DNA of 64,000 nt, from assembly GCA_964572255.1 (NCBI GenBank), contig CAZNEE010000001.1, forward strand, positions 395,587-459,586, given 5' to 3'. The notes beneath the pieces were generated by a model. That model did not search any database. It saw only the letters and a list, made by a program, of their open reading frames with translations, and was not told the DNA's origin. Every line of letters begins with the position of its first letter. Positions within the stretch are counted from its first letter, which is position 1. This DNA is from an uncultured Planctomycetia bacterium (GTDB lineage Bacteria > Omnitrophota > Gorgyraeia > Tantalellales > Tantalellaceae). The position numbers and the translations under genes are program-made. Shown here one piece after another: positions 31,600-52,263 of the stretch.

Positions 31600-31700
31600 T
31601 GTTTTTATTACGAATCGTAAACCATTCGAAAGAGTGGGGCACAAAGCCAGGGGGCGTAAGGCCGGCCGGCTACCGTTTTAACACTGTCGTAAAGTGTTGA
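31600..31700 (+). ncRNA. c-di-GMP-I (GEMM) riboswitch aptamer
   Basis: AAACCATTCGAAAGAGTGGG at 31619-31638 is identical over 20 nt to the P2 hairpin of the Vibrio cholerae Vc2 GEMM-I aptamer. GCACAAAGCC at 31639-31648 is the Vc2 ACGCAAAGCC motif with its first two bases swapped. A GGCGTAAGG tetraloop-receptor-like P3 follows. It sits in a ~200-nt leader. Confidence 0.65.
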
Positions 31701-31728: not shown

Positions 31729-31760
31729 GTCCCAACCTTACGATAGGTTGGGTTTTTGTT
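31729..31760 (+). terminator. Intrinsic terminator acting as riboswitch expression platform
   Basis: CCCAACC (31731-37), loop TTACGATA, GGTTGGG (31746-52), then TTTTTGTTTATT. It lies immediately 5' of the AGGAGA RBS and ATG of the downstream gene. Confidence 0.6.
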
Positions 31761-31776
31761 TATTAGGAGACTGAAG

Positions 31777-32397
31777 ATGAAAGAAACATGCGATCTTATC
31801 ATTATATTGCTGATGACTATACTGCTCGGGGGTGTTGCGTTCGCGTCCGAAAGTAAACCGGATCTGTACGAGATCACCGGTTACGAAGGAACGCAAGGGA
31901 TCGTTTCATCAGATTATGAAAAGTTAAATACTACAAAAGCGGAAACTGTTTTTCAGATACTGTTGGAAGACGCGGGCTATTGCGACGAAAATATTTTTGG
32001 TATTTACAGTTTTACTGATATTGATGGGATGATAACTGTGGATGTTATGCATCAAATATTCAAAGGGACAGATGCCCCGGGTAGTGAGAAAAACATCTAC
32101 CCCGGGATAAATTCTGAGATAGGGTTTTATCTCACAACACCGCAAGGCTATACGTATTATAGCCATACGTCTTTGAATCCCGATCGAGAGCAGCACATGC
32201 TGCTGTTCTCTTATTCTGATGTCAGCGATTCTGAGAGTTTTGTTGTTGCATGTGAGGACCTGTATGGTTTGGGTGACTGCGATTATAATGATCTTGTTGT
32301 TAAAGCAAGCGACGTACAAGGCAATCCCGAACCGGCTACAATATTATCGTTCTTCCTAGCCGGACTTGGTCTGGCATTTAGAAAAATGAGAAAATAA
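31777..32397 (+). CDS. Secreted PEP-CTERM protein (exosortase substrate), riboswitch-controlled
   Basis: Signal peptide MKETCDLIIILLMTILLGGVAFA. The C-terminal NPEPATILSFFLAGLGLAFRKMRK has PEP followed by a TM helix and a basic cluster. An internal EDLYGLGDCDYNDLVV motif is DUF4114-like. Confidence 0.6.
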   Translation: MKETCDLIIILLMTILLGGVAFASESKPDLYEITGYEGTQGIVSSDYEKLNTTKAETVFQILLEDAGYCDENIFGIYSFTDIDGMITVDVMHQIFKGTDAPGSEKNIYPGINSEIGFYLTTPQGYTYYSHTSLNPDREQHMLLFSYSDVSDSESFVVACEDLYGLGDCDYNDLVVKASDVQGNPEPATILSFFLAGLGLAFRKMRK

Positions 32398-32853: not shown

Positions 32854-33915
32854 ATGATTCTTAAAAAAGTTTCAAATTGGCTTGAAAATCTTGTAGGCGT
32901 TTTTTCCTCGGATATGGGCATAGATCTCGGCACCGCGTCGACACTTGTCTATATCAAGAACGAAGGCATAGTCCTCTGCGAACCTTCCGTTGTAGCGGTT
33001 GAAGCCGGGACATCCACAGTGCTTGCGGTGGGCGAGGAAGCTAAGCGCATGCTTGGCAGGACCCCGGGAACTATTGTCGCGATAAGACCGATGAGAGACG
33101 GCGTTATCACGGATTTTGAAGTCACCGAAAGCATGCTCAGATATTTCATCAAGAAAGTTCATCACTCCCGCAGTTTTGTCCGCCCCCGGATCGTGGTTGC
33201 GATACCTTCCGGCATCACAGAAGTTGAAAAACGCGCCGTGAAAGATTCAGCTCTTCATGCGGGCGCCAGAGAAGTTTTCATGATCGAGGAACCCGTGGCA
33301 GCTTCCATCGGAGTAGGCCTTCCGATACAGGAACCTTCAGGCAACATGATAATAGATATAGGCGGCGGCACGACAGAAATGGCCGTTATATCACTTGCCG
33401 GCGTGGTATTCTCCAAATCTATCCGCATAGGCGGCGATGAAATGGATGAAGCTATCATGAACTATTTGAAGAGAACTTATAATCTCATGGTGGGAGAGAG
33501 GACGGCCGAGGAAATAAAGATCAGGATCGGTTCCGGTTATCCTATGGAAGAAGAGCTTACCATGGAAGTAAGAGGCCGGGATCTTGTTGCCGGATTGCCG
33601 AAGATGATAACGATAACAAGCGAAGAGGTCCGTGAAGCTCTTGCGGAACCTATTGCGCAGATAATAGAAGCTGTAAGGATAACTCTGGAGAGGACTCCCC
33701 CGGAACTTTCAGCTGATCTGATCGAAAAAGGTTTGATCCTCGCGGGGGGCGGTTCGCTCCTGAGAGGGTTGGATAAACTTATATCAGAAGAGACAGGCCT
33801 TCCGGTCCATCTTGCGGATGACCCTTTAACAGCGGTTGTTTTAGGTACAGGCAAGGTTTTAAGTGAGCTTAAGTACCTGAAGAGGATAACGGTCGGGCCT
33901 AAACTTCACAAATAG
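32854..33915 (+). CDS. mreB: Rod shape-determining actin homolog MreB
   Basis: MreB N-terminus ([17 protein letters not shown]) and actin-fold phosphate motifs. 353 aa. Confidence 0.95.
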
Positions 33916-33931
33916 TTTATAGACATTCGAT

Positions 33932-34711
33932 GTGCCTAAAGGAAAATTCCGAAAAAATAAAAGACAAGCACTCATCGTTTTCGCGGCAGCGATCGTTCTA
34001 TTGCTGTTCCTGACCACACCGCTTTTTTCCCATTTTAAAAGATTTTCTCTCAAAGTTTTTTTGTTTCCCGTCAAGGTAATGTCTCAAGTGGGAAAGTATT
34101 TTTCCAGCAAAGATCTTCTGATGGAGGAGAACCAGGCTCTCAGAAAGAGAGTCGCGGACCTTTCGATCGAAATAGTTCGTTCACAGGATCTTAAAAGAGA
34201 GAATGAACGGCTCAGGGGACTTTTAAATTTTCAAAATAAATTCGATTTCGAGACCGTTTCAGCTGAAATAATAGCAAGAAATCCCAACGATTGGTTAGGA
34301 TCGATAGTTATCAACAAAGGGTCAAATGATGGTGTCAGGATAAATTCCGCGGTATGTTCCGCGAACGGCCTTATAGGAAAGATCGTTGATGTTAACAGGG
34401 ACACGAGTTCAGTAATGCTCATGACACATCCCGGTTTTAAAGCGGGGGGGATGATAAAAGATACAAGGGTGAATGCTATCGTGGTAGGCGGCGGCAAGGA
34501 TGCCTTGGAGATGATGTACATACCCCTTGAGGCGGATGTTTATAAAGGTTCGATCGTTGTAACTTCAGGTTACAGCCGTATATTTCCCAAAGGCATAAAG
34601 ATCGGCACGATAGCTTCTGTCGAGAAAAGCAAGACAGGTCTTTATAAGCATGCCGTTATAAAACCCTCCGCGAGTTCTGTTGGCCTGGAAGAAGTTCTTT
34701 GCGTTAAATAA
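33932..34711 (+). CDS. mreC: Rod shape-determining protein MreC
   Basis: Bitopic protein with a coiled coil (LENQALRKRVADL) and a beta-rich C-terminal domain. It follows mreB. Confidence 0.8.
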   Translation: MPKGKFRKNKRQALIVFAAAIVLLLFLTTPLFSHFKRFSLKVFLFPVKVMSQVGKYFSSKDLLMEENQALRKRVADLSIEIVRSQDLKRENERLRGLLNFQNKFDFETVSAEIIARNPNDWLGSIVINKGSNDGVRINSAVCSANGLIGKIVDVNRDTSSVMLMTHPGFKAGGMIKDTRVNAIVVGGGKDALEMMYIPLEADVYKGSIVVTSGYSRIFPKGIKIGTIASVEKSKTGLYKHAVIKPSASSVGLEEVLCVK

Positions 34712-34732
34712 TTTGCTTCGCAATCACTGGAC

Positions 34733-35209
34733 ATGGACACACGAAAATATTTATATTCACTATTGGTCTCTTCCGTTCTTATTCAAGTAACGGCGACGAA
34801 ATATTTCGCCTGCTTTCCGGATCTTATTATTGCCGCTGTAGTGTTCACGGGTATCTTTTACGGCTTGGGCAGGGGATTTGAGCTTGGGCTTGCAGCGGGC
34901 ATTCTTAGAGGCATTTTTTCAGCAGAGACAATATCAGTAGATGTACTTATCCTTCCCGCGGTGGGCATGATCTCAGCGTTGCTTGCGCGCATGGTCTACC
35001 GTCACAATCCCTTTGTGCAGCTGGTAATAACTTTCGTTGCGGTCTTCATGACCGTTCTGTTCCATACAGTTTATCTGAATTTGATATACGGAAATGATCT
35101 TAATTATTTGTCGGTTTTTGCTAAAAGTTGGCGCCCCATTGCGGCAACTGTCTTTTTTTCGCCGTTTCTTTTCGCCTTTCTGAAAAGATCATTAAAAGTA
35201 GAATCGTAG
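34733..35209 (+). CDS. mreD: Rod shape-determining protein MreD
   Basis: 158 aa polytopic membrane protein in the mreD position. Confidence 0.65.
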   Translation: MDTRKYLYSLLVSSVLIQVTATKYFACFPDLIIAAVVFTGIFYGLGRGFELGLAAGILRGIFSAETISVDVLILPAVGMISALLARMVYRHNPFVQLVITFVAVFMTVLFHTVYLNLIYGNDLNYLSVFAKSWRPIAATVFFSPFLFAFLKRSLKVES

Positions 35210-35210
35210 T

Positions 35211-36929
35211 ATGCGGATCAGGATATTCACTCTTATATTGGTTTTTTGCCTGGCATTTTTGCTGGTGGGATTATTCTCTTTTCAAGTGTTACGGCATGAT
35301 AATTACCGTGTTATGTCCGAGGAGAACAGGCTCAAAGTCACGCCTCTTATGGCTCCAAGGGGGAACATCTACGACAGGAACGGCAAGTATCTGGTAAAGA
35401 ACAAGTTAAGTTTTAATCTATGCGCGGTTTACAATCAGATAAAAGACATAGATGCGTTATCCGGTGTTCTGTCTTTGGTGCTTGATACGGATCAGGATAA
35501 GATAAAAGAAAATATAACCAGGGGAAAGAGGAATCCGTACACTCCTTTTTGCATAGCTTCGGATATAGGGGTTGAAAAAGCGATCTATCTGGAAGAGATA
35601 AGCAATGACTATCCCGGTCTTTTCGTTGACGTTTCCGCTAAGCGGGAATATGTAAATGGGGGGAGCGCTTCGGCCGTCATAGGATATCTGGGGCTCATAA
35701 ACCAGCCTGAATTTGAAAGGCTGAAACATTACGGATACAGGATAGATGATCTTGTGGGAAGGGACGGAGTTGAAAAATATTATGATAATTACTTAAGAGG
35801 CGTACACGGAGGTAAACAGGTAGAGGTCGATCATCTCAGCCGGGAATTGAGGGTTTTGGGATACAAGGAACCAATACCCGGCAAGGATATTTACCTGACT
35901 TTGGATGCGGAACTTCAGGAGTATTGCGATCAATTACTGGAAGGAAAAAAAGGCGCTATTATTGTCATGGACTCTAATACGGGCGCGATACTCGCGCTGG
36001 CGAGCGCTCCCGTATATGATCCCGGGGTTTTTATCGATAGAAAACGTTCCGAGGAACTGAAACATATACTCGGGGATGAGGATTATCCGCTTATCAACCG
36101 CGCCATTTCAGGTGCTTATCCGCCCGGTTCCGTGTTCAAGGTTGTTATTGCGTCTGCCGGTCTTGAGCTTAAAAAAATAGATCTCGAAAGTTCGTTCAAT
36201 TGTGACGGTACTTTAGTCCTGGGAAGAAAGGTATTCAGGTGCTGGTATGAAAAAGGGCACGGCGTTCAGACGATAAAAGAAGCCTTAAAAAATTCCTGTA
36301 ATGTGTTTTTTTACCGGCTCGGGCTTCTTCTCGGGGTTGATAACATAGCGGGGTTTTCATCAAAATTCAATTTGGGCGATCCCACGGGGATCGATCTGCC
36401 CGGAGAAAAGGGAGGCGTTCTGCCTTCGCGCAAGTGGAAAAGAAAAAATCTTAACGATAAATGGTATAAGGGAGAGACCGTCAATTATGCCATAGGCCAG
36501 GGATACCTTCTTTGCACGCCGCTTCAGATAGCAAGAGTGATGGCGGTTTTTGCGAATGAAGGCATTCTTTTAAAACCATATGTGGTATCAAAAGTGGGGA
36601 ATATTGACGTGAGGCCGGACGGCGAGACGAATATTGAGATCTCCCGGGAAACTATCGAGATCGTAAGGGACGGCCTTAAGAAAGTCGTGAATGATCCCAG
36701 GGGCACGGGGATGAAAGCAAAGTTGGAAGATGTTGTAGTCGCGGGCAAAACCGGTACGGCGCAGACATCACGGGGTAAAAGCCATGGGTGGTTTGCGGGT
36801 TTCGCGCCTTTTGAGGATTCGAAAATAACGGTTGTAATTTTTGACGAGTATGGAGGAAAGGGAGGATATTACGCCGCGCAGACTGCGGGAAAAGTATTCA
36901 AGAAAGCCAAATCGTTGGAGTTGATATAA
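35211..36929 (+). CDS. mrdA: Penicillin-binding protein 2 (elongasome transpeptidase) MrdA
   Basis: SxxK (GSVFKVVIA), SxN (KNSCNVF) and KTG (GKTGTAQ) motifs. It lies between mreD and rodA. Confidence 0.85.
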   Translation: MRIRIFTLILVFCLAFLLVGLFSFQVLRHDNYRVMSEENRLKVTPLMAPRGNIYDRNGKYLVKNKLSFNLCAVYNQIKDIDALSGVLSLVLDTDQDKIKENITRGKRNPYTPFCIASDIGVEKAIYLEEISNDYPGLFVDVSAKREYVNGGSASAVIGYLGLINQPEFERLKHYGYRIDDLVGRDGVEKYYDNYLRGVHGGKQVEVDHLSRELRVLGYKEPIPGKDIYLTLDAELQEYCDQLLEGKKGAIIVMDSNTGAILALASAPVYDPGVFIDRKRSEELKHILGDEDYPLINRAISGAYPPGSVFKVVIASAGLELKKIDLESSFNCDGTLVLGRKVFRCWYEKGHGVQTIKEALKNSCNVFFYRLGLLLGVDNIAGFSSKFNLGDPTGIDLPGEKGGVLPSRKWKRKNLNDKWYKGETVNYAIGQGYLLCTPLQIARVMAVFANEGILLKPYVVSKVGNIDVRPDGETNIEISRETIEIVRDGLKKVVNDPRGTGMKAKLEDVVVAGKTGTAQTSRGKSHGWFAGFAPFEDSKITVVIFDEYGGKGGYYAAQTAGKVFKKAKSLELI

Positions 36930-36931
36930 AT

Positions 36932-38008
36932 ATGGGAAGAGTTGACAAATTAATGCTTTTGGTGGTTTTTCTGATCACGATCCTTGGAGTTGTGTTCATT
37001 TACAGCGCGACCTGGGACAGGGATAATAGCGGTATAACTCTTAATAAATTCGTGATGAAGCAGTGTTTGTTCGTTGTGATCGGGTTCATTCTTCTTTTTA
37101 TCATAATGAACGCGGATTACATGAAAATGCTGGATTTCGCGTATCTTGCATACGCGATAAACCTGGCCGCGCTTCTTTTTCTTTTGATCTTCGGCGGTGA
37201 GCGTTTCGGCGCAAAGAGATGGATAAGTTTAGGTCCTTTCTCCCTCCAGCCTTCGGAATTCGTAAAGATAACCGTTATATTCGCGCTCGCCATATTTTTG
37301 GGAGATAGGAGAGAAAAAATAGGGACGGTTAAAAATTACTTTTACTCCATCGGCATTGTTTTGCCTGCTTTTATCCTGATCTTCCTCCAGCCGGATCTCG
37401 GGACGGCCTTTGTTCTTATCCCTATTCTTCTTGCTGTTCTTTTTATTTGCGGCGAAAGAGTGAAGTATATGGCTTTTACTGTTTTAGCGGGGCTTGCAAG
37501 CATGCCGATCTTCTGGAGTTTCCTTAAGAGTTATCAGAAGAACCGTCTCTTGGTATTTTTGAACCCGAATATAGATCCTTTGGGAGCGGGGTATACCATC
37601 ATACAGTCCAAAATAGCGATCGGGTCGGGAGGCATTCTCGGAAAAGGCTGGCTTGCCGGAACCCAGAGCCATCTTAAATTTTTGCCTGAACGGCATACAG
37701 ATTTTATTTTTTCGGTTATAGGGGAAGAATGGGGGTTCGTCGGCGGAGTGATACTGATCCTTCTTTATACGTTCGTGATAATGCGCGGGATAAGGATCAT
37801 AAACAACACCGATGATATCTACGGAAGGGCCATTGCAACGGGCATAGTCACTTTATTGGCTTTTCAGGTCCTTGTTAATATAGCGATGACCATAGGGCTC
37901 ATGCCGGTCGTGGGTCTGCCTTTACCGGCGATAAGCTACGGCGGTTCAAATACCGTGACATTTCTCATAGCCATGGGATTTCTTTTAAATGTGGGGCGAA
38001 GAGCGTAA
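36932..38008 (+). CDS. rodA: SEDS-family peptidoglycan polymerase RodA (MrdB)
   Basis: FtsW/RodA family protein, paralogous to the ORF at 13024. It follows mrdA. Confidence 0.85.
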   Translation: MGRVDKLMLLVVFLITILGVVFIYSATWDRDNSGITLNKFVMKQCLFVVIGFILLFIIMNADYMKMLDFAYLAYAINLAALLFLLIFGGERFGAKRWISLGPFSLQPSEFVKITVIFALAIFLGDRREKIGTVKNYFYSIGIVLPAFILIFLQPDLGTAFVLIPILLAVLFICGERVKYMAFTVLAGLASMPIFWSFLKSYQKNRLLVFLNPNIDPLGAGYTIIQSKIAIGSGGILGKGWLAGTQSHLKFLPERHTDFIFSVIGEEWGFVGGVILILLYTFVIMRGIRIINNTDDIYGRAIATGIVTLLAFQVLVNIAMTIGLMPVVGLPLPAISYGGSNTVTFLIAMGFLLNVGRRA

Positions 38009-38013
38009 AGATA

Positions 38014-39756
38014 ATGAATAAATTGCATGACATCCTGAGCAGGGTCCAAAAGCCCGCGAGATATATCGGCGGAGAAATAAACTCATCCGGCAAGACTTTT
38101 TCTGAAGAGAAAGTCACGTTTGCGCTGGCATATCCGGATCTCTATGAGATAGGCATGAGCTATCTGGGCCTGAAGATCATATATCATCTTCTTAATGAGA
38201 TGGATGATTGCGTTTGTGAACGTGTTTTTGCCCTATGGGAAGATATGGAAAATGAGCTCCTCTCATCAAGAATGAAACTTTTTTCCCTTGGATCAAAGAC
38301 TGAAATAAACAAATTCGATATTTTGGGTTTTTCTCTTTCTTACGAACTTACCTTTACCGGGGCATTGAACATGCTGCATCTTTCGGGGATAACTTTAAGA
38401 GCGGAAGACCGGAAGGAAGACGAACCGTTTGTTATTGCCGGAGGCGCGTGCTGTTACAATCCCGAACCGATGGCCGAATTTATCGATCTCTTTATCGTCG
38501 GTGACGCGGAAGAGATCATGCCCCGATTTATCCGGGAGTACAAGGTGCTGAAGAAGAAAAAAATGGCGAGAAAAAAGAAATTAAAAATTCTTTCGCGCCT
38601 TCCGGGAGTATATGTGCCTTCGCTGTATGAGGCGGAATATCTTGATGATGATTTCCTCAGACTTGCTCCGAAAGATGAAGATGCGCCTTTGAAAGTAAAA
38701 AAAGTTTATGTGGAGGATCTTGATAAAACATATTATCCCGAGAGGCAGATAGTACCGTTCATCAATATTGTCCACGATAGGATCGCCGTCGAGATAATGA
38801 GGGGCTGCCCCAACAGTTGCCGCTTCTGCCAGGCAAGCGCTGTTAACCGGCCTGTAAGGCTGAGGAGCCGGGAAACAATAAAAAATATTTGCGAGAATAC
38901 TTACCGTCACACAGGATATGAGCAGATATCGCTTCTGTCCCTCTCCAGCGTTAATTATCCTCATCTTGAAGGCCTTGTAAGGGATCTTACGGAGATCTTC
39001 AAGGAAAAAGGCGTGGGGCTTTCCATCCCGTCGCTCAGGGTCGATGAGTCTTTTTACAGACTGCCGGAGATGATCTCGACGATCCGTAAAGCCGGGCTTA
39101 CTTTTGCTCCGGAAAGCGCTGATGAGGTGATCAGAAATTCAATAGGAAAAAATATCGACAATGAGATCTTGTGCAAGTCTGCCAGGCTGGCTTTTGAGCA
39201 TGGGTGGAGGAAACTTAAACTTTATTTCATGGTGGGTTTTCCGCTTGATGAGAAAGATGAAGCCGAAAAAATACTTATATTAGCCAAGAAACTTTCGAAC
39301 ATGAAGAGAGATGTGTCGAAAGGTTCAGCCGAAATAAATTTAAGCGTTAACCCCTTTGTCCCGAAGCCGCATACGCCTTTCCAGTGGCTGGGGATGCAGC
39401 CGAGAGAAGTCCTCAAGAGAAAAAAAAGAATGTTGCTGGAAGGCGCGGGAAAGAAGATAAAAATGGCTTTTCATGATATAGACAGGTCGATATTGGAAGG
39501 CTGTCTTTCACGGGGTGACAGGAGATTATCAAAAGTGATATACGCTGCGTGGAAGAAGGGAGCAAGATTGGAAGGCTGGAATGAGTTCTTTAAATTTTCT
39601 GTTTGGGAAGAGTCTTTCAAAGAGAACGATCTTAACATTGACGAGATTTCCACACGCTCATTTTCTCCTAATGATCCATTGCCTTGGGGACATATAGATA
39701 CCGGATCAAATGGAAGATATCTTGAAAAAGAGTTTGAAAAAAGCGGACTTCAATAG
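38014..39756 (+). CDS. Radical SAM protein, TIGR03960-like (B12-binding-like N-domain); usual partner of DUF2344 and RNase G/E
   Basis: CPNSCRFCQA is the CxxxCxxC iron-sulfur cluster motif. The N-terminal LAYPDLYEIGMSYLGLKIIYHLLNE is characteristic of this family. 580 aa. Confidence 0.7.
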   Translation: MNKLHDILSRVQKPARYIGGEINSSGKTFSEEKVTFALAYPDLYEIGMSYLGLKIIYHLLNEMDDCVCERVFALWEDMENELLSSRMKLFSLGSKTEINKFDILGFSLSYELTFTGALNMLHLSGITLRAEDRKEDEPFVIAGGACCYNPEPMAEFIDLFIVGDAEEIMPRFIREYKVLKKKKMARKKKLKILSRLPGVYVPSLYEAEYLDDDFLRLAPKDEDAPLKVKKVYVEDLDKTYYPERQIVPFINIVHDRIAVEIMRGCPNSCRFCQASAVNRPVRLRSRETIKNICENTYRHTGYEQISLLSLSSVNYPHLEGLVRDLTEIFKEKGVGLSIPSLRVDESFYRLPEMISTIRKAGLTFAPESADEVIRNSIGKNIDNEILCKSARLAFEHGWRKLKLYFMVGFPLDEKDEAEKILILAKKLSNMKRDVSKGSAEINLSVNPFVPKPHTPFQWLGMQPREVLKRKKRMLLEGAGKKIKMAFHDIDRSILEGCLSRGDRRLSKVIYAAWKKGARLEGWNEFFKFSVWEESFKENDLNIDEISTRSFSPNDPLPWGHIDTGSNGRYLEKEFEKSGLQ

Positions 39757-39807
39757 GGGAGAAAAGATATTTTCTTAAGCATATCTAACTTTACTTTAAA
39801 CTTTATG

Positions 39808-39836
39808 TTGACTTCAGGCCGGTTATTGTGTATTAT
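39808..39836 (+). promoter_or_regulatory. Strong sigma70 promoter upstream of pilT (TTGACT, 17-nt spacer, TATTAT)
   Basis: TTGACT at 39808-13 and TATTAT at 39831-36, about 55 bp upstream of the pilT ATG. Confidence 0.55.
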
Positions 39837-39890
39837 ATCCATAAGGGTAGTTATCCATAATAAGCACCTATTGACTTAATGGAGGGGGTC

Positions 39891-40958
39891 ATGACAGACA
39901 ATGTCCAAAAACTTTTCGTGGAGATGAAGGATAAGAACGCTTCAGATATCCACATAACCGCAAATTCACCCATACATTTCAGGATTGATGAAGAGCTTGT
40001 AAAGGTGAATGACAATATCTTAACACCCGATGAAACCAAGACCATTGCTTACAGTCTTATGAGCGATTTCCAGAAGAAAAAATTTGAAGAAGAGAAGGAG
40101 CTGGACTTTTCATTTTCACTGGAAGATATGGGACGTTTCAGGGTAAATATTTTTATGCAGAGATTTTGCGTAGGTTGTGCTATACGAAGAATACCGCCTG
40201 AGATAATGAGTATCGAGGAATGTGGTTTGCCGATCGACGTGGTTAAAGGTTTTTGTCATACCCCTAAAGGTCTGGTCCTCGTAACGGGCGCAACAGGAAG
40301 CGGCAAATCGACCACTCTCGCGGCCATGGTCGATGAGATAAACAAGACCCGCAAGTGTCACATCGTAACGGTGGAAGATCCGATAGAATTCGTCCACCAG
40401 AACAAGCAGGCCGTAGTTGACCAGAGAGAAGTGTTTTCCGACACGTTTTCGTTTAACAACGCTCTCAGGAATGTTCTAAGACAAGACCCTGATGTTATTC
40501 TGATAGGCGAACTTCGCGACCTGGAAACGATCCAGCAGGCAATGATCATTGCCGATACCGGACACCTCGTTCTAGGTACATTACACACATCAGACAGCGT
40601 GCAGACCATAAACCGTATAATTGACGTTTTTCCGTCACACCAGCAAAGGCAGATCAGGGTCCAGCTTTCTTTCGTTCTGACGGGGCTGATTTCCCAGCAG
40701 CTCATACAGTATAAAGACGGGTCGGGCATGGAGCTTGCGACAGAGATACTTGTCGCGACACCGGCGATAAGAAGCATGATCCGGGAAGATAAGGTGCACC
40801 AGATATATTCCATCATGCAGACTTCTCAGAATCTCGGAATGAGAACGATGAACCAGGCTCTCTTTGAGTTATACTCAGCCGGCAAAATATCCTACGATAG
40901 CGCGATATCGAAATCAGGAGATGTGGAAGAATTGCTTAAAATGATAGAAAAAATATAA
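39891..40958 (+). CDS. pilT: Type IV pilus retraction ATPase PilT
   Basis: Walker A LVTGATGSGKSTT, PilT-type Asp/His boxes. About 355 aa with no long N-terminal domain. GGAGGGGG RBS. Confidence 0.85.
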   Translation: MTDNVQKLFVEMKDKNASDIHITANSPIHFRIDEELVKVNDNILTPDETKTIAYSLMSDFQKKKFEEEKELDFSFSLEDMGRFRVNIFMQRFCVGCAIRRIPPEIMSIEECGLPIDVVKGFCHTPKGLVLVTGATGSGKSTTLAAMVDEINKTRKCHIVTVEDPIEFVHQNKQAVVDQREVFSDTFSFNNALRNVLRQDPDVILIGELRDLETIQQAMIIADTGHLVLGTLHTSDSVQTINRIIDVFPSHQQRQIRVQLSFVLTGLISQQLIQYKDGSGMELATEILVATPAIRSMIREDKVHQIYSIMQTSQNLGMRTMNQALFELYSAGKISYDSAISKSGDVEELLKMIEKI

Positions 40959-40971
40959 AAAGGAGATAAAC

Positions 40972-41421
40972 GTGATACTGAAAAGACAATTGGATGAAAG
41001 GCTCGGGGAAATACTTATCCGCAACGGCAATATTTCTGATGAGCAGCTGGGCAAGGCGCTGGATCTCCAGAAACGCGAAGGCGGGCTTCTGGGCGAAGTC
41101 CTTTCGAAGCTTGGTTATGTAAAGGAACTGGAGATCGTTCAGGCGCTTACCGCGCAATACGGGTTTCCGTACATTCCGCTGGAAAATTATGAATTGAACA
41201 AAAAGTGCGCGGAAATAGTTTCCGAAGATCTTGCCAGGCAGCATAATCTTGTTCCGCTTGATGTGATCGGGGGCCTGTTGACGGTCGCGATGTCTAATCC
41301 GCTGAACAAAAAGTCGATCGAGGAGACAGAGTCGCTTACGGGAAAAAAGATCCAGATCTTCATATCCACTGCTTCATCGATAAATGATTCTATCAATGAA
41401 CTCTATAGGAAAGAAGAATAA
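40972..41421 (+). CDS. Standalone MshEN (c-di-GMP-binding) plus GspE-N1 domain protein, with no ATPase domain
   Basis: Two canonical 24-aa MshEN motifs are separated by a 5-aa spacer: RLGEILIRNGNISDEQLGKALDLQ, then KREGG, then LLGEVLSKLGYVKELEIVQALTAQ. A T2SSE_N-like fold follows. GTG start with an AAAAGGAG RBS. Confidence 0.65.
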   Translation: MILKRQLDERLGEILIRNGNISDEQLGKALDLQKREGGLLGEVLSKLGYVKELEIVQALTAQYGFPYIPLENYELNKKCAEIVSEDLARQHNLVPLDVIGGLLTVAMSNPLNKKSIEETESLTGKKIQIFISTASSINDSINELYRKEE

Positions 41422-43139
41422 TGACAGACTCATTGCCGGGCAAAATATGTGATTTTCTTATAAAGAACAACCTTGTCACGGAAGAGGACCTTAACAAGTC
41501 CCGCGAGATATGCAAGGAGCAGGGCGGGAGTCTGGGCGATGTCCTGGTGAAGATGAACGCTCTTTCAAGGGAAGATCTTCTGACCGCGATGAGCGAAGGT
41601 CTGGGTTTTGCCCCGCTTGATCTGTCACGTTTCAATATTGACGAGGGAGTCATCAAACTTATCCCGCAAAAGATCTGTCAACGCCATCAGGTGCTTCCCG
41701 TCTCCAGGATCGGGAATATCCTTACTGTCGCTATGGTCGATCCGATGAATATATCGGCTCTTGATGACATAAAAGCTATCACCAAGATGGAAGTGGTGCA
41801 GGTGGTAGTCGATCAGGACAACATGCGGGAAGCTATCAGCAAATATTTCGAAAGATCCGCGAATGAAGAGATAAGCGAGATCATGGGCGATATAAGGACC
41901 TCGCAGATGGAGATGGTTACCGAATCGGATGAGGATGTCAGCTCCAGCGAACTTTTGCGCAGCGCTGAAGAAGCTCCGGTCGTAAAACTTACCAATCTCA
42001 TATTAAGCCGTGCGGTAAAAGACGGAGCCAGCGATATACTTATTGAGCCGATGGATAAGACCGCAAGAGTAAGGTATCGCATAGACGGCGTGCTCAGGGA
42101 AAATATGGAACCCCCAAAAAAACTTCACAGAGCCATAGTATCCCGCCTTAAGGTCATGTCGAATCTCAATATTGCGGAAAGAAGGCTGCCTCAGGACGGA
42201 CGCTTTAAAATACGGATAGAGAACAGGCGCGTGGATTTCAGGGTTTCCGTGATACCGTCCAGCATGGGGGAGAAGATCGCTTTACGTATTCTTGATAAAG
42301 CTCAGGCGACGCTGGATGTTGACAAGCTTGGGTTCAGCGAAGACGGAAAAAAGAAGCTCATCAGAGCTTCCTCAAAGCCACACGGAATGATCTTGGTGTG
42401 CGGTCCCACAGGCTGCGGTAAAACGACCACACTTTATTCGATAATGAATTACATAGATTCTCCCGAGCTGAATCTGGTTACGGTAGAAGATCCCGTAGAA
42501 TATGAACTGAAAGGCGTGAACCAGGTTTCCGTAAAGGAGGATATGGGCCTGACCTTCGCCGCCTGTTTGCGTTCTATTCTTAGGCAGGACCCGGATATTA
42601 TTTTGGTAGGAGAGATAAGAGATCTGGAGACCGTTGACACAGCTATCAAATCCGCGTTAACGGGGCACCTTGTACTCAGCACTTTACACACGAATACCGC
42701 CAGCGGTTCTATTGTAAGGCTTGTTAATATGGGAGTGGAGCCGTTTTTGATATCTTCATCGGTCGAGCTTGTCGCGGCACAGGCGCTTTTAAGAAGATTA
42801 TGTCCGGATTGCAAGGAAGCATATACGCCCGCAAAGGAGATCGCCGACAGGTATAAACTTTTTGATGAGAGCGGGGGAATTGCGAAAATTTATAAGCCGA
42901 AAGGCTGTAAGAACTGCGGTGATACCGGATATCAGGGCCGCGAAGGCATAATTGAATGCTTGGAGTTGACGCCCACTATCAAAGAACTTATTTTCCGGAG
43001 AGCCGAGGAACTCGAAATTGAAAGAACCGCGAAAAAAGAGGGCATGTCCACGTTAAGGCAGAACGGCATCGCAAAAGTACTTAAAGGCATTACATCGCTC
43101 GAAGAAGTATTAAGGGTCACGATGGAAGACAGAGGGTAA
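41421..43139 (+). CDS. pilB: Type IV pilus assembly ATPase PilB/GspE paralog 1
   Basis: Walker A LVCGPTGCGKTTT and a C-terminal tetracysteine (CPDC...CKNCGDTG). The N-terminal MshEN-like motifs are degenerate. Confidence 0.85.
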   Translation: MTDSLPGKICDFLIKNNLVTEEDLNKSREICKEQGGSLGDVLVKMNALSREDLLTAMSEGLGFAPLDLSRFNIDEGVIKLIPQKICQRHQVLPVSRIGNILTVAMVDPMNISALDDIKAITKMEVVQVVVDQDNMREAISKYFERSANEEISEIMGDIRTSQMEMVTESDEDVSSSELLRSAEEAPVVKLTNLILSRAVKDGASDILIEPMDKTARVRYRIDGVLRENMEPPKKLHRAIVSRLKVMSNLNIAERRLPQDGRFKIRIENRRVDFRVSVIPSSMGEKIALRILDKAQATLDVDKLGFSEDGKKKLIRASSKPHGMILVCGPTGCGKTTTLYSIMNYIDSPELNLVTVEDPVEYELKGVNQVSVKEDMGLTFAACLRSILRQDPDIILVGEIRDLETVDTAIKSALTGHLVLSTLHTNTASGSIVRLVNMGVEPFLISSSVELVAAQALLRRLCPDCKEAYTPAKEIADRYKLFDESGGIAKIYKPKGCKNCGDTGYQGREGIIECLELTPTIKELIFRRAEELEIERTAKKEGMSTLRQNGIAKVLKGITSLEEVLRVTMEDRG

Positions 43140-43162: not shown

Positions 43163-44872
43163 ATGAGTACATCTATAAGAAGCAGGATATTGAAGGCGAT
43201 CGAAAAGAGCGAATTTGTAGACAAGAATCGCTATCAGAATTTCCTGAACAAGAGCAAGGGAGGGAAGGAAGAGGATATCCTTAGGAGCCTTGTTGAGGAG
43301 GATGTTATTTCCGCGCAGAACCTGCTTACGGTATTGAGCGAAGAATTGGGCCTTCCCGCGATAGATGTATCTAAGATAGAACTTGATGATTCTGCGATGA
43401 GGACGATACCGGAACGCCTCGTGAGAAAATACAAAATTATACCCCTTTCACGCATCGGAAATTCACTCACTCTTGTCGTGTCAGATCCGACCGATGTCAT
43501 GGCTATCGACGATGTGCGCACCATAACAGGGTGCGAGATCAGTTTAGTTATTGCCGATCAGGCTGATCTGGAGAAAAAATTACTTTCGTATTACGAAGGC
43601 GAAGAGGATGATATTACCGACATCATTGACGAGGAAGCCGAAAGCGATGATATCGAGGTTTTGGGAAGATCGGAAAATCTTGATGTAGCGGATATTACCA
43701 AGAAAAGCAAGCAGGCGCCGATAGTCAAGATGGTGAACCTTATAATAAGCGAGGCCTTGAAGAACAGGGCAAGTGATATACACGTCGAGCCTCAGGAAAA
43801 ATCGGTAAGGATAAGGAACAGGATAGACGGCGCGCTTCAGGAAGCTTTTGATCTTCCGAAGAAGAACCAGAACGCGGTCATAGCGAGACTTAAGATCATG
43901 TCAAATCTTGACATAACGGAGAACCGGGTGCCTCAGGACGGCAGGTTCAGGATAAACATGGACGGAAGGGATATAGATTTTCGTGTATCGATCCTTCCCT
44001 GCAGGTTCGGCAATAAGATCGTTTTAAGAGCGTTGGATAAGAGCGGCCTTTCTTTCGGGCTGGAAACTTTGGGATTCCTTCCTGATACAATGAATGATTT
44101 CAAGCAGGCTCTTTCCAAACCGTTCGGGATCATACTTGTGACAGGGCCTACCGGAAGCGGGAAATCAACGACTCTTTATTCTGTCCTTAACGAAATGAAT
44201 GTGCCGGAGAGAAATATTGTTACCATTGAAGATCCCGTCGAGTATCAGGTGCAGGGCATAACCCAGATACCGGCTCGCCCGGACATAGGGCTCAATTTCG
44301 CGAGCGGCTTAAGATCGGTTTTGCGCCAGAGCCCCGATGTCATAATGGTCGGAGAGATCAGGGATTATGAGACGGCGGATATAGCGATCAAAGCTTCGCT
44401 TACGGGTCACATGGTCCTCAGCACTTTACATACCAACGACGCTGTGGGAGCGATCACGCGTTTGGTCAACATGGGAGTGGAGCCTTTTCTCATCGCTTCA
44501 AGTCTTGTTATGGCATGCGCCCAGAGGCTTCTCCGCAAGATCTGTCCGCATTGCAAAGTTAAAGCGGATCTTCCAAAAGAAGTATTAAGTGGTCTGAGAG
44601 AGAAGTATCCTGATATAATGGAACAGACAGATACGTTTTACAAAGGCAAGGGGTGCCAGAAATGCAACGATACCGGTTATCTGGGGCGTTTCGCGACTTT
44701 AGAAACAGTGCTGGTCGATGAGAAGATAAATGGAATGATCAACCGGAAAAAGTCTGAAGAAGAGATCAAAAAATACCTCAGATCAAAAGGTGTCAGGACG
44801 CTTCGTGAAAACGCGCTGATAAAATTCTGTAAAGGCTGGACGACTTACGAAGAGGTTTTAAGGGTAACTTAA
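43163..44872 (+). CDS. pilB: Type IV pilus assembly ATPase PilB/GspE paralog 2
   Basis: Walker A LVTGPTGSGKSTT and a tetracysteine (CPHC...CQKCNDTG). The N-terminal GspE_N domain lacks the RLG motif. Confidence 0.85.
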   Translation: MSTSIRSRILKAIEKSEFVDKNRYQNFLNKSKGGKEEDILRSLVEEDVISAQNLLTVLSEELGLPAIDVSKIELDDSAMRTIPERLVRKYKIIPLSRIGNSLTLVVSDPTDVMAIDDVRTITGCEISLVIADQADLEKKLLSYYEGEEDDITDIIDEEAESDDIEVLGRSENLDVADITKKSKQAPIVKMVNLIISEALKNRASDIHVEPQEKSVRIRNRIDGALQEAFDLPKKNQNAVIARLKIMSNLDITENRVPQDGRFRINMDGRDIDFRVSILPCRFGNKIVLRALDKSGLSFGLETLGFLPDTMNDFKQALSKPFGIILVTGPTGSGKSTTLYSVLNEMNVPERNIVTIEDPVEYQVQGITQIPARPDIGLNFASGLRSVLRQSPDVIMVGEIRDYETADIAIKASLTGHMVLSTLHTNDAVGAITRLVNMGVEPFLIASSLVMACAQRLLRKICPHCKVKADLPKEVLSGLREKYPDIMEQTDTFYKGKGCQKCNDTGYLGRFATLETVLVDEKINGMINRKKSEEEIKKYLRSKGVRTLRENALIKFCKGWTTYEEVLRVT

Positions 44873-44923: not shown

Positions 44924-46144
44924 ATGGCGAAATTCACATATATCGCAAAGAACAAAGAGGGCGCTACGGTAAAGGGCGAACTTGACGCGCCGGAGAAAGG
45001 TCAGGCGCTTGATATTCTGCGGGGCAAAGGGTTTTTGATCCTCAAACTTGAGCAGCTGCGGGAACTCTCCAATATTTTTTCCTCTTTTAAATTCAGAAAA
45101 GGCAAAAAAGTCTCCCTTGATGATCTTGTGGTTTTTTCAAGGCAATTGGCGACATTGATCGAATCAGGCATACCTGTTGTAAGTTCGCTGGATATACTTT
45201 CCGAACAGGCGGATAATGAGACCTTGAAGAGCGTTTTAATAGATGTAAGAGATTCGGTTAATACGGGATCCAGCCTTTCGGATGCGCTGCTTAAACATTC
45301 GGCTCTCTTTTCGTCCCTGTTCGTGAACATGGTAAGGGCCGGCGAATCCAGCGGTTCGCTGGACGTGGTTCTTGACAGGATCGCGACTTATCAGGAAAAA
45401 AAGAGCGCTTTGCAGAAAAAGATCAAGTCAGCTCTTATTTATCCTATGGTTGTTTCCGGCATGGCCGTTGCGATCACGCTCATTATGCTCTTGAAGGTAA
45501 TACCTGTTTTTAAGGATATTTTTTCAGGTTTCGGCGCTAAACTTCCCACGCCTACACAGCTTTTGATCAACCTCAGCGATTTTCTGATAAACAATTTTGT
45601 ACTGCTGATAATATTTTTTATCGTTCTTGGCATAGCTGTCAAAAAGTATGTAGATACGCCAAAAGGAAGGGCATTGATCGACAGGTACAAACTGCGGCTT
45701 CCTATCGTCGGTTCCTTAGCGACAAAAGTCGCCATAAGTAAATTCACCCGCACATTAAGCACTTTACTGAATAGCGGTGTGCCGATATTGACGGCTCTTG
45801 AGATCGTGGCCAAGACTTCGGGCAACGTTATTGTAGAACGGTCCGTTGACAATGTCAAAGAAAGCGTAAGAGAAGGAGAGAGCGTGGCAACCCCCATGGA
45901 AAGAAGCGGGATTTTTCCCCGCATGGTAACAAGAATGGTATCAGTCGGCGAAAAGACAGGGGAACTGGAGAAGATGCTCGCGAAAATATCGGATTTTTAT
46001 GATGAACAGGTTGACACGTCGGTGGAAGGCCTGACAAGTTTGATAGAACCTCTTGTTATCGCGTTTCTTGGTATTGTTATCGGAGGCATAGTTATCTGTA
46101 TGTTCCTCCCGATATTCAAGATATCGACCATAATCAATTTTTAG
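44924..46144 (+). CDS. pilC: Type IV pilus inner-membrane platform protein PilC (GspF family)
   Basis: 406 aa with two GspF repeats and three TMs. It follows the pilB genes. Confidence 0.85.
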   Translation: MAKFTYIAKNKEGATVKGELDAPEKGQALDILRGKGFLILKLEQLRELSNIFSSFKFRKGKKVSLDDLVVFSRQLATLIESGIPVVSSLDILSEQADNETLKSVLIDVRDSVNTGSSLSDALLKHSALFSSLFVNMVRAGESSGSLDVVLDRIATYQEKKSALQKKIKSALIYPMVVSGMAVAITLIMLLKVIPVFKDIFSGFGAKLPTPTQLLINLSDFLINNFVLLIIFFIVLGIAVKKYVDTPKGRALIDRYKLRLPIVGSLATKVAISKFTRTLSTLLNSGVPILTALEIVAKTSGNVIVERSVDNVKESVREGESVATPMERSGIFPRMVTRMVSVGEKTGELEKMLAKISDFYDEQVDTSVEGLTSLIEPLVIAFLGIVIGGIVICMFLPIFKISTIINF

Positions 46145-46293: not shown

Positions 46294-46641
46294 ATGATCA
46301 GAATGCGCAAATTACTAGGAAAGGGTGGTTTTACGCTTGTTGAAATTATGATTGTTGTCGCAATTATAGGTTTATTAGCCGCAGTGGCCATCCCGAACTT
46401 CATGCGTGCAAGACAAAGAGCGCAGACAAACGCTTGTATCGCGAATCTGAAACAGATGGACGGCGCGAAGACATTGTGGGCGCTGGATACAGGTGCTGCC
46501 AGCGGTGCTGCAGTGACCATGGCAAACCTTGTTACTGCGTACATAAAATCAACACCGTCTTGTCCCGCAAACGGTACTTACACGATCGGTGCAATAGGGA
46601 CTACTCCTACATGCACTGTTTCAGGCCACGCGCTGCCGTAA
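46294..46641 (+). CDS. pilA: Type IV pilin (prepilin-type N-terminal cleavage/methylation domain), tandem copy 1
   Basis: GKGG then FTLVEIMIVVAIIGLLAAVAIPNF is the class III signal. A C-terminal Cys pair (disulfide-loop region) is present. 115 aa. It has its own strong terminator. Confidence 0.8.
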   Translation: MIRMRKLLGKGGFTLVEIMIVVAIIGLLAAVAIPNFMRARQRAQTNACIANLKQMDGAKTLWALDTGAASGAAVTMANLVTAYIKSTPSCPANGTYTIGAIGTTPTCTVSGHALP

Positions 46642-46714: not shown

Positions 46715-46781
46715 ATAACTTATGAAACTTTAGTAGGATTTGCCTTTTGCGCATATGATGGTATACTTAAGGCAAAAATTT

Positions 46782-47120
46782 ATGCTTACGATCAGAAAAA
46801 AACAGGGTTTTACGCTTGTTGAAATAATGATAGTTGTTGCCATTATCGGCTTATTGGCAGCGGTGGCTATACCGAATTTTATGCGCTCGAGGGAAAGAGC
46901 GCAGACCAATGCCTGCATTTCGAACTTGAAGCAGATAGCGGGAGCGAAGACATTATGGGCGATCGATTACGGCGCTATTACAGGAGATCCCGTTATGATG
47001 TCTGATCTGTGCACGGCATATTTTAAGACCGCACCTCAATGCCCCGCGGGGGGAACATACACACTGGGAGCGGTAGGGACCGAACCGACATGCAGTGTTT
47101 CCGGACATGAATTGCCTTAG
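46782..47120 (+). CDS. pilA: Type IV pilin, tandem copy 2
   Basis: KKQG then FTLVEIMIVVAIIGLLAAVAIPNF. A paralog of copy 1, identical over the N-terminal helix. Confidence 0.75.
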   Translation: MLTIRKKQGFTLVEIMIVVAIIGLLAAVAIPNFMRSRERAQTNACISNLKQIAGAKTLWAIDYGAITGDPVMMSDLCTAYFKTAPQCPAGGTYTLGAVGTEPTCSVSGHELP

Positions 47121-47138: not shown

Positions 47139-47486
47139 ATGAAAGTGATCTATCAAAAAAAAGGTTTCACTCTCATCGAAATAGTGCTTGTCGCCACTGT
47201 TATTGCCTTTTTGGTGGCTCTGGTCGTTCCGAATGCCATGCGCGCCAGGCAAAGATCACAGACGAATACATGCATTACGAATTTAAAACAGATAGCGGGC
47301 GCAAAAACCTTATGGGCTATTGAGGGGGGCCTGGTGAGCGGGGATACGATAGATCTTGCCGACATTATTTCGGCGTATTTCAAGGAAACGCCTGTCTGCC
47401 CCGCGGGAGGTACTTATACCATAGGAATGGTCGGTGTTGATCCCGCTTGCAATGTTCCGGGCCATGTTCTTCCGGAAAATGAATAG
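47139..47486 (+). CDS. pilA: Type IV pilin, tandem copy 3
   Basis: QKKG then FTLIEIVLVATVIAFLVALVVPN. More diverged paralog. Confidence 0.75.
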   Translation: MKVIYQKKGFTLIEIVLVATVIAFLVALVVPNAMRARQRSQTNTCITNLKQIAGAKTLWAIEGGLVSGDTIDLADIISAYFKETPVCPAGGTYTIGMVGVDPACNVPGHVLPENE

Positions 47487-49372: not shown

Positions 49373-49497
49373 GCATGTCAAGTTAGCACTCTTTCTTGAC
49401 ATTATATTAGCCATATGATACTCTTAATTGAAATATATACTATTATTTTTAATTATTTTATGAGTTTTCGCATTAGACACATATACCCTGATTGAAT

Positions 49498-50523
49498 ATG
49501 ATCGTTAAATTTGGCCAAAAAACCCAGGAATCTGTAGGGCTCGATATAGGGGACTATTCTATCAAGGTAAGTTCCATCAAAAAAGAAGCCGACAGGAACA
49601 TTCTTACCTCATATAATTTAAAAAAGATCCCCCCGGAAGGAAACAAGGCGGAGAAACTTTCTCAGCTGATCAAAGAGACGCTGGATGAAGTGGGGGTTGC
49701 CCCGGAAGACGTGAATTTCTCTGTGTCGGGCTCTGATGTTATAGTGAGATTCATCGATCTTCCCAAGATGACCAAAGAACAGCTGGACAATTCAATGGCT
49801 TATGAGGCCGAAAAATATATACCGTTTAACGTGAATGAAGTGGTAATGGATTCGGTGATACTCGGACGGGCTTCAGAAGCGGGGCAGATGAGGGTCCTTC
49901 TTGCGGCGGTGAAGAAAGATTATCTCGAATCAAGGATCAAAGTGGTGGATAAGCTCGGCTTCGGGGTCAATGTAGTGGATATAGATCCTTTTGCCGAGTT
50001 CAATGCTTTTTTAGCCGCGAAGAACAATCTCCCCAAGGATAAAGGGACCGCCTTTTTTGATTTCGGGCATACGCATACCAATATGCTGATATCCATAGGC
50101 GAAGCCCCGTGTTTCATGAGGCAGATACAGATAGGCGGCGCGGACATAACAAATACGATAGCGGAGGACCTGGGGATCTCCGCTAAAGAAGCCGAAGAAT
50201 TGAAGACCAAAAGCGATGAAGAGACGAAAAATAAAGTCTCCCGGTCAACTTTTTCGGTTCTCGATGAACTTATCAAGGAGATGCAGCTTTCATTCGGCTA
50301 TTTTGAGAACAGGTTCAATGAGCCCATCGGCAACTTTTATTGTTCCGGGGGGCAGACATACCAGCAGGGAGTTATTGAATATATACAGGAAAAGGTCGGT
50401 GCTAAAGTGGACAGATGGGACCCGACTGCCGGAATGGTCTTGGCCGAAGACCTTTCAAAAGAAGCGGTCAGTTCCATCGGCTCTCAGCTTGCGGTAAGTA
50501 TCGGATTAGCATTAAGAGGTTGA
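49498..50523 (+). CDS. pilM: Type IV pilus assembly protein PilM (actin-like ATPase fold)
   Basis: VGLDIGDYSIKVS N-terminus, about 340 aa. It is followed by pilNOPQ. Confidence 0.8.
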   Translation: MIVKFGQKTQESVGLDIGDYSIKVSSIKKEADRNILTSYNLKKIPPEGNKAEKLSQLIKETLDEVGVAPEDVNFSVSGSDVIVRFIDLPKMTKEQLDNSMAYEAEKYIPFNVNEVVMDSVILGRASEAGQMRVLLAAVKKDYLESRIKVVDKLGFGVNVVDIDPFAEFNAFLAAKNNLPKDKGTAFFDFGHTHTNMLISIGEAPCFMRQIQIGGADITNTIAEDLGISAKEAEELKTKSDEETKNKVSRSTFSVLDELIKEMQLSFGYFENRFNEPIGNFYCSGGQTYQQGVIEYIQEKVGAKVDRWDPTAGMVLAEDLSKEAVSSIGSQLAVSIGLALRG

Positions 50524-50591
50524 TAGTAGTAAGCGGATTACGCGAAAGGTATCCACTATTCGCGTAGCCCACTCACAACATATAACGAATT

Positions 50592-51263: not shown

Positions 51264-51265
51264 AA

Positions 51266-51880: not shown

Positions 51881-51881
51881 T

Positions 51882-52244: not shown

Positions 52245-52263
52245 ATCACAAAAGGGGGAGGGT

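Follow-up and report, generated by a model that had tools for sequence, protein, structure and literature searches.

We analyzed a 64,000-nucleotide (nt) stretch of DNA, called the window below, from an uncultured bacterium of the Omnitrophota that was deposited as an uncultured Planctomycetia bacterium (GenBank assembly GCA_964572255.1, contig CAZNEE010000001.1). Within its type IV pilus locus, a small gene on the + strand (40972–41421) encodes a 149-amino acid (aa) protein made of one stand-alone MshEN domain, the receptor domain for cyclic di-GMP (c-di-GMP), directly upstream of two extension ATPase genes, pilB1 and pilB2. The gene call draws on the list of open reading frames (ORFs), matches to PF05157 and NF053729, AlphaFold 2, and Foldseek. 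We think it fairly probable that the protein serves the type IV pilus extension motor as a c-di-GMP sensor subunit that is naturally split off and acts in trans. A PilB with two MshEN domains, (MshEN)2-T2SSE, would in effect have been divided into a 149-aa sensor and a PilB1 with a ligand-blind N-domain. An initial annotation of the window had already suggested that c-di-GMP sensing was outsourced to a separate protein acting in trans. This is supported by a complementary pattern of motif retention and loss with an outgroup control, by a fused MshEN~PilB1 gene, and by a c-di-GMP-I riboswitch in the window, while ligand binding and docking are steps we infer.

The initial annotation had described two 24-residue MshEN motifs with a 5-aa spacer and an N1-like fold, lacking any ATPase domain, and had named a search with the hidden Markov model (HMM) PF05157 as a check. 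In a Pfam search, the 149-aa protein matched PF05157 over aa 63–148 (E = 4.7e-19; 68.6 bits against a cut-off of 23.1). The NCBIfam model NF053729 (“c-di-GMP_motif”), a dedicated 53-residue model of the ligand motif, matched aa 10–62 with 60.8 bits against a cut-off of 38. This alignment covers motif I (aa 10–33, RLGEILIRNGNISDEQLGKALDLQ, at 40999–41070) and motif II (aa 39–62, LLGEVLSKLGYVKELEIVQALTAQ, at 41086–41157), both on the + strand and separated by the 5-residue spacer KREGG, which together reproduce the published tandem MshEN pattern. The extended consensus, (R/K/L)LGxx(L/V/I)(L/V/I)xxG(L/V/I)(L/V/I)xxxxLxxxLxxQ occurring twice with a 5-residue spacer (PMC11731258), is departed from only at N20, a hydrophobic position of motif I where the family mostly has V, L, or I. 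The remainder, aa 63–148 (41158–41415, + strand), is the MshEN_C/T2SSE_N1 alpha-beta subdomain, delimited by PF05157, conservation, and the secondary structure predicted by AlphaFold 2; its conserved blocks are QYGFPYLPLENYE, PENVARQY, and MSNPLN. PF05157 was the only Pfam family found in the protein, with no T2SSE ATPase domain and no match to PF00437. TIGR02538 reached 75 bits against a cut-off of 675, over model positions 2–139 only, and the protein thus falls outside the PilB/MshE/GspE-type secretion ATPases, which have a T2SSE core with Walker A/B, Asp, and His boxes.

An AlphaFold 2 model built from 118 homologs has a mean predicted local distance difference test (pLDDT) score of 91.5 and a predicted template modeling (pTM) score of 0.80, and shows four helices followed by an alpha/beta unit. 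The top Foldseek match in the PDB is 5HTL, the MshE N-domain of Vibrio cholerae with c-di-GMP (template modeling score 0.80–0.86, root mean square deviation 2.0–2.1 Å). The next matches are the GSPII domains of Thermus PilF and the X. citri PilB-N/PilZ complex (7LKO), with weak matches to 2BH1 and 4PHT. The architecture given in the initial annotation was therefore confirmed by PF05157, NF053729, AlphaFold 2, and Foldseek. Every domain feature that could be tested was present, and membership of the domain in the MshEN family is clear.

Across the stand-alone family, the first position is K in motif I (R in the window) and Leu in motif II. The latter, L39, aligns with L196 of PilF GSPII-B. The K167/L196 pair belongs to a domain that binds c-di-GMP at 6 nM, and the consensus was extended to (R/K/L)LG on that basis (PMC11731258). 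A Leu opening motif II should therefore not be read as a defect. V. cholerae MshEN_N is also known to bind c-di-GMP in isolation. The c-di-GMP motif residues appear complete in the 149-aa protein, and high-affinity binding is predicted.

Next, we compared the motif in the three proteins. In a scan that took one genome for each GTDB species, 241 genomes contained relatives of the stand-alone protein, and all species-level synteny and motif work described here concerns the best 80 of these 241 (loci L004–L083). An alignment covering about 63–77 species, with the stand-alone proteins and the N-domains of both PilBs, was scored at the constrained motif positions. G12 is kept in 100% of the stand-alone proteins but in 1% of PilB1 (C, S, or T instead) and 0% of PilB2 (L, I, or A instead). 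G41 is likewise present in 100% of the stand-alone proteins, as against 29% of PilB1 and 16% of PilB2. Retention of Q33 is 99% in the stand-alone protein and lower in the ATPases, where 68% of PilB1 and 69% of PilB2 obey the relaxed motif at this position. Q62 is universal in the stand-alone protein (100%) and mostly Glu in both ATPases, with 19% of PilB1 and 8% of PilB2 obeying the relaxed motif. At these Gly positions, the main-chain amides form hydrogen bonds to the guanine bases of c-di-GMP. The V. cholerae domain loses binding altogether with G11L, and binds 72-fold more weakly with G40I and 12-fold more weakly with Q61A. In the window itself, pairwise alignment shows that PilB1 differs from the stand-alone protein by G12C, G19N, L30R, Q33C, and Q62G, and PilB2 gives no match to NF053729, as expected from the initial annotation, which had called the PilB1 motif degenerate and the PilB2 motif absent. 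That the conserved Leu, Gly, and Gln positions of the small protein align was also borne out, as G12, L15, Q33, G41, and Q62 are kept across homologs.

As a control, a metagenome scan was seeded with PilB1 instead of the small protein. At 52% identity or above, the stand-alone gene lies upstream in all five loci, and pilB2 lies downstream in 3/3 of those long enough to show it. The 75 weaker loci (43–49% identity) are single pilB-pilC loci, none of which (0/75) has a stand-alone gene or a pilB2. The 68 distinct PilBs of this outgroup keep the motif, with G12 in 67/68, Q33 in 67/68, R39 in 64/68, G41 in 65/68, and Q62 in 67/68. Because these 68 partnerless PilBs retain the canonical motif, its loss can be matched to the detached domain: judged from the aligned residues, PilB lacks the motif precisely in those loci that have the detached domain.

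The same data bear on whether the small protein could be a ligand-independent scaffold or assembly factor of the PilB1/PilB2 motor, its motif being kept for folding. There is a precedent in GSPII-A of T. thermophilus PilF, which does not bind c-di-GMP despite sharing the fold. However, the N-domains of PilB1 and PilB2 remain in the fold family (PF05157) yet have lost the ligand-contacting Gly and Gln positions, and therefore the fold does not require them. Retention of 99–100% in the stand-alone protein, at identities down to 40%, argues instead for ligand binding, and we regard the scaffold role as quite improbable.

A fused homolog links the small protein to PilB1. P0140 is a 765-aa protein (L084:8001–10298) encoded on a metagenomic contig with a GC content of 62%. 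Its first MshEN domain is 39% identical to the stand-alone protein and shares the signature ALTxQ(Y/F)G(F/V)PYLxLExYE. A low-complexity G/N/K-rich linker follows, and the remainder is a PilB1-like ATPase (48% identity) whose own MshEN is degenerate. Downstream are genes for a PilB2-like protein (45%, L084:10305–12017) and PilC (44%, L084:12052–13263), while the upstream neighbors differ (glycoside hydrolase, deacetylase, and GT2) and do not include pilT. Since P0140 fuses both proteins, the small protein and PilB1 would act as one unit by the Rosetta-stone argument, and the comparison argues that the Omnitrophota arrangement is equivalent to a split (MshEN)2-T2SSE ATPase.

The main rival to a sensor subunit is a c-di-GMP-dependent decoy or competitor, in which the free MshEN/N1 protein does not become part of the motor. 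It would instead contend with PilT, or with the N1 domains of both PilBs for access to the PilM/PilC platform, and so serve as a ligand-gated inhibitor or as a selector of the ATPase that engages. GspE-type ATPases are known to contact GspL, a PilM homolog, through their N1 (MshEN_C) subdomain, which fits with the weak structural matches to 2BH1 and 4PHT. The gene also lies between pilT and the two pilB paralogs, so that three ATPases would share one platform, and the PENVARQY and MSNPLN blocks are as conserved as the ligand motif. However, P0140 tethers the domain in cis to a PilB1-like ATPase, which fits a subunit better than a competitor, and the tight coupling to pilB1 (median gap of 15 nt, with an overlap in the window) suggests matched stoichiometry. 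In T. thermophilus, moreover, the GSPII domains are not required for PilMN binding. We judge the competitor unlikely, although it is the strongest of the alternatives to a sensor subunit.

The gene itself is well defined. A Shine-Dalgarno-like AAGGAG (40960–40965, + strand), read from the sequence, lies 6 nt 5′ of the GTG start, which agrees with the good ribosome binding site noted in the initial annotation (GGAG, 6 nt upstream). The pilT stop codon (40956–40958) precedes the GTG by 13 nt. At the other end, the TAA (41419–41421) shares one nucleotide with the pilB1 ATG at 41421, in the string TAATG, and the stop/start overlap described earlier is thus seen directly in the window sequence. With more than 300 same-length homologs, relatives in 241 GTDB species, and a high-confidence fold, the ORF is a real gene and chance is excluded.

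We also asked whether the ORF is an artifact or a product of decay, either the 5′ end of pilB1 cut off by a frameshift or what is left of a degraded third pilB. In favor of this, the stop codon of the gene overlaps the start codon of pilB1, and JGI pipelines annotate some homologs as “PilB.” However, PilB1 is complete and has its own PF05157 N-domain, to which the small protein is only 22% identical, and the small gene keeps the same length and position, separate from pilB1, in 80/80 species loci. Mean column identity in the stand-alone family is 61–75%, with invariant functional residues, and an identical 149-aa protein is present on seven contigs from different samples, one of them 527 kb long. 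A split pilB1 was therefore rejected, in agreement with the initial annotation, and the artifact reading as a whole can be taken as refuted. A recent duplication of a neighbor's N-domain was likewise rejected: identity is 22% to the PilB1 N-domain and 26% to the PilB2 N-domain, and several foreign PilB N-domains, including those of Geobacter PilB and Thermus PilF, score higher against the small protein than do the neighboring PilBs.

For the sensor subunit that we favor, the following mechanism may be proposed. The small gene would be co-transcribed with pilB1 and is probably translationally coupled to it. Its product would bind monomeric c-di-GMP between its two 24-residue motifs, with an affinity that is probably sub-micromolar or better, given its K/R...L variant of the 6 nM PilF GSPII-B site. 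The liganded sensor would then dock non-covalently on a PilB1 hexamer, a PilB1/PilB2 hexamer, or the PilM/PilC platform, and docking would couple pilus extension to the c-di-GMP level. We presume positive regulation by analogy with V. cholerae MshE, M. xanthus PilB, and Thermus PilF.

With regard to the ligand, the window contains a c-di-GMP-I (GEMM-I) riboswitch aptamer (31606–31677, + strand), which matched RF01051 at 48.3 bits against a gathering score of 35 and has a shortened second hairpin. It lies about 80 nt upstream of a gene for a 213-aa DUF4114 protein (31756–32397), ahead of the mreB-mreC-pbp2-rodA cluster and 9 kb upstream of the MshEN gene. The riboswitch shows that the organism uses c-di-GMP. 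In related loci with enough flanking sequence, an automatic test placed a gene for a HAMP-GAF-GGDEF protein of about 470 aa directly 5′ of pilT in 57/61 cases (for example, L052:5465–6901, L006:5416–6828, and L062:2101–3516). The remaining 4/61 also have the gene, overlapped by an over-extended pilT ORF. An SGDEF or GGDEF reading occurs in a subset of mostly lower-identity loci, and no RxxD I-site was found in the operon-linked GGDEF proteins. Given the degenerate motif of most members and the missing I-site, we do not claim these proteins as active cyclases or as a local source of c-di-GMP.

Some GGDEF variants produce other dinucleotides, and the operon-linked GGDEF active site is non-canonical in most species. 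The small protein could then sense another or an additional dinucleotide, such as 3′3′-cyclic GMP-AMP (cGAMP), in an otherwise identical trans-acting role at the motor; the Results of the 2016 MshEN paper include a section headed “MshEN can also bind cGAMP.” However, no residue that defines the c-di-GMP motif is missing, NF053729 scores well above its cut-off in 76/76 members, and the window has the c-di-GMP-I riboswitch. A different ligand seems to us very unlikely.

Several observations weigh against a c-di-GMP sensor beside ligand-blind ATPases. At E ≤ 1e-9, NF053729 matches the stand-alone protein in 76/76 cases, but also 57/75 PilB1 N-domains and 23/64 PilB2 N-domains. The window PilB1 is borderline, with 36.6 bits at full length and 39.9 bits for its N-terminal 150 aa (cut-off 38). 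Our attempt to split binders cleanly from non-binders with this model was thus only partly successful, and we moved the argument to the residue level. Because the model matches many PilB1 N-domains, the case for PilB1 as a non-binder rests on its residue changes set against the published mutagenesis. In PilB1, Cys, Ser, or Thr replaces the Gly, a less drastic change than the Leu used in the mutagenesis, and so PilB1 may retain residual c-di-GMP binding. Q or T stands in place of K or R at the start of the motif in the more divergent half of the stand-alone family (only 51% obey the relaxed motif). The GSPII domains of T. thermophilus PilF are dispensable for PilMN binding, with GSPII-C needed for stimulation, which makes the docking site uncertain. 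Furthermore, in most species the operon-linked GGDEF has a degenerate active site (e.g., RFDFDEF and RLSGDTF), and the window genome has no HAMP-GAF-GGDEF gene at this position, only a 122-bp gap (39757–39878). No GGDEF or EAL protein was found in the 64-kb window using PleD, WspR, and RocR probes, with HD-GYP covered by a crude regular expression only. Finally, P0140 is the only fused homolog verified.

The stand-alone protein occurs across Omnitrophota. A search of 5.8 billion proteins returned 305 homologs, of which the top 120 are 141–210 aa long (almost all 141–176) and 54–71% identical to the query, its own 100% cluster aside. All named homologs among these 120 come from metagenome-assembled genomes (MAGs) of Candidatus Omnitrophota. 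By cluster names, no relatives were seen outside Omnitrophota, as only Omnitrophota names were returned and most clusters are unnamed. Omnitrophota MAGs, some of which carry the label “uncultured Planctomycetia,” also make up the best 80 of the 241 relatives. G12, L15, Q33, G41, and Q62 do not vary among the top 120; over sets of 76–120 homologs, G41 and Q62 show no variation and G12, L15, and Q33 little or none. The order pilT, MshEN-only, pilB1, pilB2, pilC, and pilins is found in 80/80 loci wherever the contig reaches, and persists down to 40% identity of the stand-alone protein. Median gaps are 17 nt from pilT to MshEN, 15 nt from MshEN to pilB1, and 5 nt from pilB1 to pilB2, and rodA and a radical-SAM gene usually lie upstream of the module. 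The arrangement had been introduced as one not commonly described; this holds for the literature but not for nature, where it is characteristic of the Omnitrophota loci examined. Also conserved in these loci are the two tandem full-length PilB paralogs, neither of which has lost its ATPase or Zn motifs, and the PilB2 N-domain is the more divergent (mean column identity of 47%, versus 59% for that of PilB1). One MAG, isolate nzgw286, has the MshEN-only/pilB1/pilB2 module on two separate contigs (L070 and L078), which reflects either duplication or strain mixing in the bin.

The arrangement was compared with several described architectures. Like V. cholerae MshE-N (5HTL), the small protein has the two-subdomain fold, tandem 24-residue motifs, 5-residue spacer, and association with an extension ATPase. 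In V. cholerae, however, the domain is covalently fused to the T2SSE ATPase, whereas in Omnitrophota it is a separate 149-aa polypeptide. GSPII-B of T. thermophilus PilF (8PDK/8PKZ) has the same K/R and L at the first motif positions. Both the PilF motor and the Omnitrophota motor combine binding-competent and binding-incompetent MshEN-type domains, competence being predicted in the latter. In PilF, GSPII-A, -B, and -C lie in cis on one 889-aa chain, while in Omnitrophota, the putatively competent domain is separate and the putatively incompetent ones are on two paralogous ATPases. The Omnitrophota system is therefore not of the PilF (MshEN)n-T2SSE type, as a stop codon separates MshEN and PilB1 in 80/80 loci. 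A related fused form is the (MshEN)2-T2SSE ATPase, with two successive MshEN domains before the ATPase; Wang 2016 (Suppl. Table 4) lists the Clostridia Cthe_1107 type, and P0140 is a further example. In P0140, the first resembles the stand-alone protein and the second PilB1-N, with PilB2-like and PilC genes after it. These are single fused genes, and the Omnitrophota form is split at the inter-domain linker.

The FimX-PilZ-PilB system of Xanthomonas and Pseudomonas follows the same logic, in that a separate receptor docks on a non-sensing PilB N-terminal domain, as a review describes it (see also PMC8389850). There, the folds are unrelated and two proteins are used, a degenerate GGDEF-EAL protein and a PilZ adaptor, where Omnitrophota would use one MshEN protein, and the FimX and PilZ genes are not translationally coupled to pilB. 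The likeness to FimX/PilZ-type regulators is one of function and not of membership, PF05157 being the only Pfam family in the small protein. MshEN-type receptors that lack an ATPase or enzymatic output domain have been listed before, namely P. aeruginosa PA3740 (MshEN - xT2SSE_N1) and Cyanothece cce_1044 ((MshEN_N)2). PA3740 has an extra divergent N1 domain, whereas the 149 aa here comprise exactly one N and one C subdomain, which sets the protein apart from the PA3740 type; cce_1044 has two N-subdomains and no N1. Wang 2016 describes neither as an operon partner of degenerate-motif pilB genes, and Suppl. Table 4 of that paper, the founding catalog of MshEN architectures, has no plain MshEN-only form. 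Full-text searches of the literature returned no description of a detached MshEN beside a degenerate-motif pilB pair. What is new here, in a design that resembles FimX-PilZ, is that the sensor appears to be outsourced using the ATPase's own ancestral sensor domain.

Other MshEN proteins were seen in the course of this work. A 397–416-aa protein with an N-terminal MshEN and an unannotated C-terminal half is encoded just upstream of a single canonical-motif pilB in loci of non-Omnitrophota type (L092:2523–3716, L099:2582–3832, and L100:2582–3832). Such proteins may be another class of non-ATPase MshEN partner. P0179 (454 aa) and P0229 (723 aa), among the closest representatives, are unusual MshEN fusions. 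The fusions seen are MshEN with a DnaA-type ATPase domain and MshEN-PilZ-DUF7305, the latter with two c-di-GMP receptor domains in one protein.

The neighboring genes, all on the + strand, are those of a type IVa pilus. The retraction ATPase gene pilT (39879–40958) was assigned by TIGR01420 (462.7 bits against a cut-off of 319) and synteny. From domain matches and alignment, pilB1 (41421–43139) encodes a full-length extension ATPase with a degenerate MshEN motif, and pilB2 (43163–44872) a second full-length extension ATPase with no recognizable c-di-GMP motif in the window. TIGR02538 scores 664 bits for PilB1 and 622 bits for PilB2 over essentially the whole model, with PilB1 aligned over residues 9 to 568. 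Each has its own PF05157 domain in Pfam and intact Walker A, catalytic Glu box, His box, and tetracysteine (Zn) motifs. The platform gene pilC (44924–46144) shows two stretches of PF00482 (T2SSF). It is followed by three tandem small pilin genes (46294–46641, 46740–47120, and 47139–47486), identified by the N_methyl motif and the ORF list. The pilins are 115–126 aa long, 55–72% identical to one another, and share a C-terminal Cys block, CPxGGTYTxGxxGxxPxCxVxGHxLP. Further downstream (49492–53883) are pilM, a pilN-like gene, pilO, a small ORF, and the pilQ secretin gene, from PilM_2, PilO, and Secretin matches and the ORF list. As pilM, pilO, and the secretin are also present downstream, the type IVa pilus locus in the window is complete. 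Immediately 5′ of the pilus operon, the stretch 32854–39756 holds mreB-mreC-(mreD)-pbp2-rodA and a radical-SAM gene (PF19864 + PF04055). The order rodA, radical-SAM, and pilT is kept in the related Omnitrophota loci, which suggests an old link between cell-shape and pilus loci.

A 2024 review called the contribution of the N-terminal MshEN/N1 domain to PilB signaling “poorly understood.” Here, the sensor is apparently split from the motor and the N-domains of the motor are blinded, which offers a natural system for reconstitution in trans and for dissecting how MshEN domains control pilus motors, and the comparative-genomics case for it is solid. With the K/L variant linked to nanomolar affinity, the 149-aa domain might further serve as a small scaffold on which to build a c-di-GMP biosensor. 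More tentatively, the small protein may be a shared, dissociable c-di-GMP “clutch” that chooses PilT, PilB1, or PilB2 for the platform or licenses a PilB1/PilB2 hetero-hexamer; we hold this as a possibility only, if a little more seriously than the competitor. If so, type IV pili would be controlled by ligand-gated subunit exchange and not by allostery within one chain, and the clutch would gate pilus-mediated contact in ultra-small, probably host-attached Omnitrophota. For this widespread uncultured phylum, the stand-alone MshEN protein is the first concrete c-di-GMP effector to be predicted, and it is linked to pili that Omnitrophota probably use for contact with surfaces or hosts.

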